Part shown: piece by piece, positions 32,001-56,716 of the stretch
How positions within the stretch are numbered: position 1 is the stretch's first letter
How the letters are laid out: each line of letters begins with the position of its first letter
From: a virus
Virus record (IMG/VR): IMGVR_UViG_3300032249_000480
Span: 32,001 to 96,000 of that record
Reading direction: 5' to 3' (one strand)
Length of the DNA: 64,000 nucleotides
Translations under genes and position numbers: made by a program
Notes under the pieces: generated by a model
What the model was told of the DNA's origin: nothing
The model's database searches: none
Seen by the model: only the letters and a program-made list of their open reading frames with translations

Positions 32001-33359
32001 AGTGATCCAACACAGAGTGTAAGCATTGGTGGCGGTTCAGCGGGTATTTCATTAGTTGATCCAAAAACTAATATTGGATATTACTTTGAAATTGCAGCAC
32101 TTACTACTGCAAATTTGCAAACATATTTAAAGATTGATTCAAAGACTGGCTTAAGTACTAATGCTATTAACAATATAATGTTTTATAAAATTCAAAAAGA
32201 GCCGTCATCAAGCAAGGCAATTCCTGTATCTCTTTGGGGTGGCGTAGGAAACATTATTGTTGATGATGGCAACTTTGCTGGACAATATAGACTGGCAAAT
32301 GAGGAAAATCCTTCAGTGTATGACTTATCTATGGAATATGTTGATGAAGGATCTAAAAGAATATTTTACTTATATATAAATGGAAAATTAGTTAAAACTG
32401 TTATAGATTCAACTCCAATTACATTGATTAATCCATCAATAGGACTTTTTGTTAGAGGAACAACAAAAGCAATGTTTGAAAATATTTATGCACTTGGTAA
32501 AAATTATGCAACAAATGCAGTGTTTGATTTAGATGCACCAATTGCATCAGTTTTTGGTGATGATAATAATAGCGTAAATGCAATAGAAGCATTAAATAAA
32601 TATGCAATTAGCGGTGTTATTCAAAAAACATATTTAACTGGAATTGGAACCACTAAAGGTATTCCATCTTATAATATTTATTTTGAAGAATTTGGAACAA
32701 TTTTAAGAGAATGTGCATATTTTAATATAAAATATGATAGAGCATACCCAGCACTGTATGCAAGAATTGCACCCACATTAAATAGGCTTAAAGGTTATAC
32801 AGTCTCTGGATTTACTGCAGATTCATATGGAGCAGAATTTTTAATTTTTAACAATACAGATACTATTTTAAATTTAGATGAGACTTCTGGTAATTTTTTA
32901 AGAATTCAGGGTGTAACATTTACTCAAGACACAACAAATACAATAACTATTGATGACTATTACAATAATAAAGGAAATGCATCAGATCCAGAACTGCTAG
33001 GAAATAATTTAGTAACATCACCATTTAGGATTAATGAAGAGTATGACCAAATAAAATTAAGCAGAATACTATATGGCAAAAATGAATTCTTTTTAGACAG
33101 TCAATATATTCAAGATTCAGACACTGCCAACGATTTACTTGGCTGGATAGCAAGTAAAAATTTAAAGCCTAAAAAGAACGTTGGTTTAGATATATTTTCA
33201 ATACCAACATTGCAACTTGGAGATATTGTAAACTTATCATATAAAGAAAATGGTATTGATGCAATAACATCGGATAAAACAAATTTTGTAGTATATAATA
33301 TTAACTATAAAAAATCTATTGATGGTCCAACCATGACTGTTTATTTGAGCGAGGTATAA
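29010..33359 (+). CDS. Large minor tail / baseplate hub protein
   Basis: 1449 aa; QSAMFFDEYNNF and C-terminal PTLQLGDIV hub-type motifs. Confidence 0.7.
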   Translation: MFESDELKNHLETSNTISAQSAIVAEWNMNVPGNIYKLGNYRYRSTSTQYSVLPDFFDNNDSGSFYTGATDSDIVVDYGYDDEDVPLLFRSKKTKEKLYYSLEDCIKPFRPRSGINKLSYFSGNYISYPNKDMYTRPRYYMPHKDDTFKYWRSYRTESVVPPPLSETNALIPVSIQQSNIEYGISKNSSDGRYLIEDANPFVVYKEEVPANRIVIKVQTNVGSSDLGPFKNTGGTTFNDPFYGNSNKTTPQNFKIQYLDIYNKWQDAYSFDEAPFIDDLQRPTIPDDGHIELQYGLEVPTRYINNFVFKRIETSVNALPNINIIGSAYLIANNPTDRGTLAIYNGFGYDFSIPVYKWQVGSDSITSNSTFVNDFTNPSYFRESSSLERTYREFVWVKGIRLVVTTMNKPDIPLELIEMSPRLIANITNNVLEFEITKVLSDLGNSTLPVGQVMPGSGTISLFDSDQSFAETNIWNGESGSIIAKYLNKNIKFIFFEVIKNVNGADYYVPIKTLYSTNMPQVDQTNSNISIELRDFYFHFELTKAPQIFLQEVSLSQAICILLDSIGFSNYIFKRLSNANDPIIPNFFIAPEQSTAEVLNQLAIATQSAMFFDEYNNFVVMTKEYVLDSTGERSADIVLYGNNNSGKLENIISISSQDKKVINSGTINYVARYIARTYGSFAQSQYTDKSWIYKPSLLWEVSGSSATTTLNNQTQSKYALSAMPLNTDLTNNIPTVSGNVLINNKIDLGENAFWITRFKGMLYANGEIIKYDAVEYNITGTGNVWISTSQEYQDYFSKLPFNGKIYPTGLVRIYAEPYYETINGFTKLKNGPVVKHGRGQFGTEIVAHNAGLNPYWYDNNYVQGCDMESQYLYTTEIQPTLPATVSTGAAGVNQTLAQKSERTGIIKNFMSSKFFNESGLKSLTSAAGGTIQSSALVINGPGFGTNDVPRNFISYVWKSLDKLYPHIGTRVRIIGKVEALGDMSQSPVGAMTYFNLPGSDPTQSVSIGGGSAGISLVDPKTNIGYYFEIAALTTANLQTYLKIDSKTGLSTNAINNIMFYKIQKEPSSSKAIPVSLWGGVGNIIVDDGNFAGQYRLANEENPSVYDLSMEYVDEGSKRIFYLYINGKLVKTVIDSTPITLINPSIGLFVRGTTKAMFENIYALGKNYATNAVFDLDAPIASVFGDDNNSVNAIEALNKYAISGVIQKTYLTGIGTTKGIPSYNIYFEEFGTILRECAYFNIKYDRAYPALYARIAPTLNRLKGYTVSGFTADSYGAEFLIFNNTDTILNLDETSGNFLRIQGVTFTQDTTNTITIDDYYNNKGNASDPELLGNNLVTSPFRINEEYDQIKLSRILYGKNEFFLDSQYIQDSDTANDLLGWIASKNLKPKKNVGLDIFSIPTLQLGDIVNLSYKENGIDAITSDKTNFVVYNINYKKSIDGPTMTVYLSEV

Positions 33360-55901: not shown

Positions 55902-56315
55902 ATGATGAACGATCCATGGGCCATTTTTAATGACCCTTTTTTTATTGGGTTTAATAGAAACCTAACACAACTAAACAATGTATATAAAACAAATAACCAA
56001 TCCTATCCTCCATATGATCTTCTTAAACTAGATGAAGACACATATGTTTTGTCTTTAGCGGTTGCTGGATTTTCTAAAGAAGACATTGATGTATCTGTAG
56101 ACAATGGATCTCTTGTTATTAAAGGAGAGACTGTAGAAGTTACTGATGCTGAAGTGGTTCACAAGGGTATTGCTAATCGTAAGTTTACTCGTACATTTGC
56201 TCTTGGTGAATACATGGAAGTAGTTGGAGCAGAACTAAAAGACGGTATGTTGACAATTAAGATTGATCGTATCGTTCCTGAAGAAAAGAAACCAAAAACA
56301 ATTAAGATAAAGTAG
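55902..56315 (+). CDS. hsp20: Small heat shock protein (Hsp20/IbpA family)
   Basis: YPPYDL, LAVAGF, HKGIANRKFTRTF, AELKDGML.I. Confidence 0.95.
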   Translation: MMNDPWAIFNDPFFIGFNRNLTQLNNVYKTNNQSYPPYDLLKLDEDTYVLSLAVAGFSKEDIDVSVDNGSLVIKGETVEVTDAEVVHKGIANRKFTRTFALGEYMEVVGAELKDGMLTIKIDRIVPEEKKPKTIKIK

Positions 56316-56327
56316 TATAATATAATA

Positions 56328-56414
56328 GTCCCCACACAGGACCTTAGTGATGGATTAGTTACCCATTTATAATGACCGTGGCCTACGTGCCTGAATTACC
56401 TGTGTGGGGCTTTT
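56328..56414 (+). ncRNA. Candidate small structured RNA
   Basis: 11-bp closing stem CCCCACACAGG / CCTGTGTGGGG around a 58-nt interior with sub-hairpins; TATAAT upstream, T-run downstream. Confidence 0.6.
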
Positions 56415-56440
56415 AATTATTCTGATATAATTAGTTTGCT

Positions 56441-56716
56441 ATGACTGACAAAGAGTTAGTTCAATATAATAAACAAGAGTTTAAGCAACGCCTAAAACAA
56501 ATAAAAGAAAAGTCTGGCTGTGTTGATTGTGGAGAAAATAATCATATTGTTTTAGATTTTGATCACTTAAGTAATAAAAAATATAATGTTTCAAGAATGA
56601 TTCATGATGGATTTTCTTGGGCAGCAATTAAAAAAGAAATATCAAAGTGTGAAGTTGTGTGTTCCAATTGTCATAGAATAAGAACTCACAACAGATTGAC
56701 AAAAAAAACTGCTTAG
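56441..56716 (+). CDS. HNH endonuclease (small)
   Basis: CVDC, LDFDH, CEVVCSNCHRIRT. Confidence 0.85.
   Translation: MTDKELVQYNKQEFKQRLKQIKEKSGCVDCGENNHIVLDFDHLSNKKYNVSRMIHDGFSWAAIKKEISKCEVVCSNCHRIRTHNRLTKKTA

Follow-up and report, generated by a model that had tools for sequence, protein, structure and literature searches.

What does a phage gain from an 85-nt structured RNA lodged between an hsp20 gene and a small HNH endonuclease gene, and does its resemblance to ribosomal RNA mean anything? The question arises from a 64,000-nt stretch of DNA (the window; positions 32,001 to 96,000 of IMG/VR record IMGVR_UViG_3300032249_000480), where a first-pass annotation described a -10 box followed by a self-contained RNA of about 85 nt and proposed that its 16S rRNA-like loops might act as a decoy for an initiation factor, a ribosomal protein or an anti-phage ribonuclease, with a link to the HNH gene also possible. 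The sequence reads exactly as described, and the observation is confirmed. The interpretation is only partly supported: the RNA is undescribed, self-contained and linked to the HNH gene, whereas the idea of a 16S mimic is not supported. The features of the locus are the following.

55902..56315 (+), hsp20 gene (Pfam HSP20, E = 2.5e-20; PHROG 432); its stop codon at 56313-56315 abuts the -10 box of the RNA
56316..56326 (+), two overlapping TATAAT -10 boxes (56316-56321 and 56321-56326), the first placing the start near G56328
56328..56414 (+), the small RNA, about 85 nt
56330..56340 (+), P1, 5' arm of the closing helix, CCCCACACAGG
56341..56363 (+), conserved core, antisense to 23S rRNA helix 69 and its 3' flank; block 1 is 56341-56353, with one extra U at 56348, and block 2 (UAGUUACC) is 56356-56363
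56350..56366 (+), P2 hairpin, AUGG / 9-nt loop (56354-56362) / CCAU, with UAGUUAC in its loop
56380..56391 (+), P3, a small 3' hairpin, GGC / 6 nt / GCC
56399..56409 (+), P1, 3' arm of the closing helix
56410..56414 (+), C plus a UUUU run (56411-56414), a weak terminator tail
56423..56431 (+), TGnTATAAT extended -10 box of the HNH gene, 9 nt before its ATG, without a Shine-Dalgarno sequence (leaderless-type start)
56441..56716 (+), small HNH endonuclease gene (91 aa), probably a free-standing homing endonuclease

The first step was to ask whether the element is more than a chance fold. The single sequence has a minimum free energy of -29.9 kcal/mol and folds better than its shuffles (z = -3.6), and the 11-mer stem arms occur only here in the window, where 0.24 matches are expected by chance. 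Covariance model R1 hits 56330-56409 with 101.9 bits, and this is the only hit in the whole 104,786-bp genome, which carries direct terminal repeats. A search of Rfam 15 returned no match in the window at the gathering threshold, and at E up to 10 the only hit was a chance PhrS match on the other strand. ARAGORN detected no tRNA or tmRNA in the window, and the four tRNAs of the genome lie elsewhere. The Rfam search of relatives gave only tRNAs. The element is also not a simple intrinsic terminator: the GC-rich stem and, in this window, the U-run are present, but the stem encloses 58 conserved nt, for which reason a terminator scan does not list it. The U-run is weak or degenerate in most relatives. 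The -10 box is a consensus match only, although a TAcAAT/TATAAT box is kept at the same spacing in relatives.

Conservation and covariation show that the family is real and structured. An 18-mer from the hairpin hit more than 119 IMG/VR contigs, a lower bound, which gave 79 distinct versions over a 138-nt interval. Similarly, all 80 loci fetched through the neighbouring HNH protein carry the RNA about 30 nt upstream of the HNH start. The closing stem is proven by covariation: 8 of 11 pairs show changes on both sides, 99.5% of cells are paired, and no shuffled or slid control comes near. Across 27 stem types there are 14 G·U cells against 2 A·C cells, which puts the folded molecule on the + strand, in agreement with the upstream -10 box, the UUCG and GNRA loops of family members and Streptomyces-phage counterparts, and the U-tracts. 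P2 is less strongly supported, with one compensatory change, 11 G·U and 10 mismatches among 81 unique sequences. P3 shows no compensatory change; it is present in most variants as GGC-N6-GCY and is replaced by GGC-GCAA-GUC, a GNRA-capped hairpin, in the commonest subtype. A mutual-information scan for further pairs found only P1 and differences between subtypes. One relative holds a 5'-truncated copy (retrieved locus L258:2392-2468; L numbers denote retrieved loci throughout) in which the 5' arm of the closing helix and the joining strand are deleted and the rest is fused to the end of hsp20.

The resemblance to 16S rRNA was examined next. The 12-of-13 identity to E. coli 16S 785-797 is real (the 790 hairpin sequence is confirmed in PMC4613259), but it does not survive comparison. 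In a sample chosen through the HNH protein, and thus blind to the RNA sequence, the loop begins AU, UU, CU, AA, AG, CA or UA and is sometimes 10 nt long; the exact AUUAG start occurs in only about 40% of this sample, and only the last seven loop bases, UAGUUAC, are fixed. Of the 16S-like loop and its flank only UAGUUACC is invariant, so that the loop AUUAGAUAC closed by GG/CC is not kept across the family. The second proposed likeness, to the 16S segment before the 530 loop, rests on the 9-mer CTACGTGCC, which matches actinobacterial 16S in sense at a chance-level E-value and lies in the variable hairpin.

What, then, do the conserved bases match? A scan of bacterial genomes with the conserved motif returned, among other hits, the minus strand of a 23S rRNA gene. 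This hit (L300, labelled Parasphingorhabdus) is a 619-nt 23S fragment with a GGUGG-type helix 69. Two others (L299, L303) are true copies of the RNA on phage-like contigs binned with Methylococcus and Polynucleobacter MAGs, probably through mis-binning, and binning is not host evidence; the remaining seven show no flanking closing stem and look like chance hits. Following up on this, we found that the invariant 7-mer has exactly one perfect antisense site in E. coli rRNA, at 23S 1910-1916 in the loop of helix 69. Actinobacteria have a distinctive helix-69 stem, GGUGG/CCAUC, which was verified from the classical probe HGC69a (PMC4070681) and from an Actinomyces oris rrn operon. Against this version, the joining strand and the 5' arm of P2 complement the 3' arm of helix 69 and the CUAAGGU linker, while UAGUUACC complements the 5' arm and half of the loop. 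The two variable loop bases face the only non-matching centre. The connection to rRNA is real but of the opposite kind, and the RNA therefore looks like a binder of rRNA rather than a decoy that imitates it.

Over the whole 6.3-kb actinobacterial rrn operon, helix 69 is the top duplex site for all eight cores tested and the best gapped local alignment for nine of ten elements, with z of about 2 to 8. The element of this window scores 29 against shuffles of 19.9 +/- 1.9 (maximum 25). Conservation coincides with complementarity: in the set not selected on the RNA sequence, 19 of the 23 positions of the core are at least 95% conserved against 19 of 57 elsewhere in the RNA (p = 7e-5), and TAGTTACC is the only fully invariant run. 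However, the match is weaker for the variant in this window than for its relatives. Its complementarity is broken into runs of 7, 5 and 8 nt by a bulged U and a 2-versus-3-nt centre, its duplex energy at helix 69 (-28.0) barely beats the next site (-26.6) and is matched by the best shuffle, and ungapped BLAST does not single the site out. In the comparative model the loop (56354-56362) and the joining strand (56341-56349) are free while GAUGG/CC sit in P2, so that part of the complementary stretch is locked in the RNA's own stem, and the single-sequence minimum free energy structure folds the interior differently.

Related evidence comes from cultivated phages. The portal protein is 46% identical to those of Streptomyces cluster-BE phages, and the HNH protein is 45% identical to the HNH of Streptomyces phage Spilled. 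Upstream of that HNH gene, after the endolysin gene, lies an element with a TACAAT box, about 110 nt of sequence and a strong UUCG-capped terminator, which is conserved in 111 Streptomyces phage records (L281:2142-2309; ON970579.1 22151-22318 and others) and annotated in none of them. It shares the 10-mer CUUAGGAUGG and the ...UACC end with the freshwater RNA and extends the antisense to 26-28 nt, with scores of 33-35 and z of 6-8 in three phages. Its first hairpin has an invariant 16-nt loop (UAUGGAAAUGAGUCCG), and it has no 790-like loop. The scaffold is different, as there is no closing helix and model R1 does not detect it. Homology thus rests on the 10-mer, a second short motif and synteny, and is likely but not proven. 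An Rfam search of this element gave a weak rsmX-like hit (E = 0.018, 22.6 bits against a threshold of 56), which was set aside because the GGA motif is not kept in the freshwater family and Actinobacteria are not known to have CsrA.

Cofolding with a 52-nt 23S fragment suggests that the match is specific to the host type. The freshwater RNAs show a net gain only with the actinobacterial type (-2.7 to -4.4 against 0.0 kcal/mol with the E. coli type; about -3 kcal/mol for the RNA of this window), and for the Streptomyces elements the gain is about twice as large with that type (-13 to -16 against -6.6 to -8.4 kcal/mol). There are also signs of convergence. A scan of IMG/VR for the antisense of the standard bacterial sequence found 12 non-rDNA contigs in about seven unrelated phage contexts (among L307-L319), each with at least 19 nt of perfect antisense to standard-type 23S 1913-1935, and several have it at the apparent 5' end of a short RNA that ends in a terminator hairpin (for example L312 and L318). 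In contrast, the exact actinobacterial 21-mer antisense gave 0 hits in IMG/VR, and the standard-type pattern with both arms gave only an rDNA contaminant.

Other targets and identities gave nothing. A duplex scan of the loop alone against E. coli rRNA did not make helix 69 stand out, a misleading result because it left out the flanking arm and used the wrong helix type. A second antisense block, the P3 loop against helix 71, was rejected, since it appeared in 2 of 65 segments with scores equal to shuffles. Within the phage genome, matches to the complements of the conserved motifs are at chance level, and the genome has no other long rRNA-antisense stretch and no RNA antisense to the 16S 3' tail. 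Resemblances noticed by eye to the hammerhead core, k-turn or loop E motifs, RNase P CR-I and boxA are not supported by any search. Two freshwater metatranscriptomes hold contigs of relatives spanning hsp20, the RNA and the HNH gene, but these show no transcript ends and may be DNA carry-over, so they only place a relative's region in RNA libraries.

The HNH gene raises a question of its own. It matches PHROG HNH families (E = 2.7e-23), although Pfam gives no HNH hit. A TATAAT 7-9 nt before its ATG is conserved in relatives, and several genes of this phage (at 55650, 56441, 60617 and 4929 of the window) start 6-9 nt after a TATAAT box without a Shine-Dalgarno sequence, which fits an actinobacterial host. 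Of 103 RNA copies with enough downstream DNA, 97 are directly followed by the HNH gene, and the pair occurs after hsp20, after other RNA modules and after a tRNA array; in one relative (L004:8388-8810, -) the RNA directly follows four tRNA genes and precedes a longer HNH protein whose nuclease domain is 54% identical. On the other hand, the gene is present in five and absent in six of 11 Streptomyces phages examined at the same spot, all of which keep the element, and the RNA persists without it at L043 and L117. Spilled is among the Streptomyces phages with the HNH gene, and Karimac and Genie2 are among those without it. In some freshwater relatives hsp20 is followed directly by the endolysin leader, without the RNA or the HNH gene. 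We therefore read the gene as probably a homing endonuclease, its cleavage activity being inferred, that sits beside a conserved RNA gene and not as a partner of the RNA. In the small Streptomyces sample, phages with the HNH gene tend to have altered or expanded loops in the anti-helix-69 hairpin (such as ...UAUACGAUACC), whereas those without it stay closer to ...UUAUAUUACC; this may be target-site immunity, but with five against six related genomes it is not significant.

The hsp20-proximal region of relatives also holds other conserved, unannotated structured RNA modules between hsp20 and the next gene, each behind its own TATAAT box (L018:3729-3900 (-), L034, L137, L167, L195). One starts UUCCG...CGGA and contains a T-arm-like hairpin (GAAG-UCGAAU-CUUC), and Rfam finds nothing for them. 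A recurrent pseudoknot-like motif, GACCUGRRCA-GUC-...AAACUGYYC, occurs at L130:3405-3470, L132, L147 and at the 3' ends of these modules; it lies directly before the ribosome-binding site of the CHAP endolysin gene in relatives that lack the RNA and the HNH gene, and could be a riboswitch-like leader or a conserved terminator. A further module type after hsp20 (L169, L172, L179, L187) contains CUGCACC...GGGGAGUCGCAG and GUCGGGGGAGACAGCGAC hairpins and in L127 is placed in tandem in front of the RNA studied here, so the modules can be strung together.

Taken together, we favor, with a probability of roughly 0.55, an independently transcribed small RNA of a new family in a freshwater phage that most likely infects Actinobacteria. 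In this view the 11-bp helix probably stabilizes the RNA and helps to end transcription, and a hairpin that is the mirror image of helix 69 presents the invariant UAGUUAC, preceded by a single-stranded stretch. Together these bases complement 23S positions of about 1909-1931 of the Actinobacteria type, that is, the 5' arm and loop of helix 69, its 3' arm and the CUAAGGU linker. The RNA would kiss the exposed loop of helix 69 in free or immature 50S subunits, followed by limited strand invasion, and this would interfere with bridge B2a, and so with subunit joining or late 50S maturation, and reshape host translation during infection. The HNH gene would be a selfish passenger using the conserved RNA gene as its landing site. 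The analysis establishes the RNA family, its strand, the closing helix, the conservation pattern and the complementarity, while transcription as a discrete RNA, binding to rRNA and any effect on ribosomes are inferred, as is the host and with it the 23S sequence. Helix 69 itself is accessible to antisense: a 13-mer PNA is reported to invade it, block translation and stop growth (Kulik 2017, as cited in PMC10777018). Against the mechanism, the 1925-1931 linker is probably not free in mature 50S subunits, and blocking helix 69 would also hurt the phage's own translation, which leaves the benefit to the phage unexplained.

Among the alternatives, the one that survives best, though we consider it unlikely, is a structured RNA acting through a protein or another RNA target, with a three-way junction whose invariant joining strands form a protein-binding or tertiary-fold motif and an incidental complementarity to 23S. 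The joining strand tolerates a 1-nt insertion, which suits a structural motif, the energies of the freshwater variants are only marginally better than the controls, and unexplained RNA modules occupy the same locus in relatives. However, the conserved bases are exactly the complementary ones, the Streptomyces elements keep and extend the same antisense in a different scaffold, and unrelated phages carry perfect versions of it. Somewhat less likely still, the rDNA-like stretch might matter as DNA, being or deriving from the recognition site of the HNH endonuclease in a region of 23S rDNA that is a classic homing site, with the folded RNA as terminator and insulator of a mobile cassette. The tight linkage, the sporadic HNH gene and the varied upstream contexts speak for this; the persistence of the element without the gene, the anti-helix-69 contigs not found through an HNH gene, and the strand-specific G·U pattern and covariation speak against it. 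Moreover, a homing site is normally conserved because its host gene is functional, which brings the question back to the RNA itself. The 16S helix-24 decoy, for IF3, a ribosomal protein, a hibernation factor or a nuclease, is very improbable: although the 9-nt loop closed by GG/CC is the same and the seven invariant bases differ from 16S 789-795 at one position, that mismatch, at 792, is itself invariant in the family. An elaborate terminator or 3'-end stabilizer of the hsp20 transcript is equally improbable, since despite its position behind hsp20, its GC-rich stem and its U-run the element encloses the most conserved bases of the region, has its own conserved -10 box, also occurs behind other RNA modules and tRNA genes, and is missing behind many hsp20 genes of relatives.

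Several described systems offer partial parallels. The loop-presenting antisense RNAs of plasmids (CopA/CopT of R1, RNA I/RNA II of ColE1, Sok/hok) are likewise short and stable, have their own promoter, and can start pairing as a kissing complex that spreads into adjacent single strands, but they are made from the strand opposite their target gene and are fully complementary to it, whereas this RNA is encoded in trans, would target host 23S rRNA and has interrupted complementarity. The synthetic anti-helix-69 PNA shares the target hairpin but is an artificial 13-mer with a neutral backbone, and nothing natural of this kind was described in the papers searched. Trans-encoded base-pairing sRNAs of bacteria and phages also combine their own promoter, a short conserved complementary region and a structured 3' end, yet known examples act on mRNAs, usually with Hfq or ProQ, while here the match is to rRNA and the inferred hosts, Actinobacteria, are not known to have Hfq. 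In the stable-RNA clusters of T4 and T5, small RNA genes also sit beside free-standing endonuclease genes (T4 segB among the tRNA genes and RNAs C and D; T5 F-Tfl HNH enzymes), and in relatives of our phage the RNA lies next to tRNA arrays, but no rRNA complementarity has been reported for T4 RNAs C and D, whose functions are unknown. Guide snoRNAs of archaea and eukaryotes pair with defined rRNA segments, helix 69 among them, but no C/D or H/ACA boxes are present here, bacteria are not known to have partner proteins for them, and the predicted effect is blocking rather than modification.

Phage small RNAs are known to act on mRNAs, and we found no paper describing a natural RNA, from a phage or a cell, that targets the rRNA of the bacterial ribosome at a functional center. 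It is about as likely as not that phages of several unrelated lineages have independently evolved small RNAs that bind helix 69, each matching its own host's version, to control subunit joining or 50S maturation, an RNA-based takeover of the ribosome with no described precedent, of which this junction RNA would be the actinophage form that presents the antisense as a mirror-image hairpin. Helix 69 forms the central bridge between the subunits and is already a validated target for synthetic antisense antibacterials. A natural, widespread anti-helix-69 RNA would be a ready-made design for RNA-based translation inhibitors. It could also serve as a marker for host prediction, because the arms would follow the host's helix type, and for the phages that carry it, it would be a new mode of host takeover.
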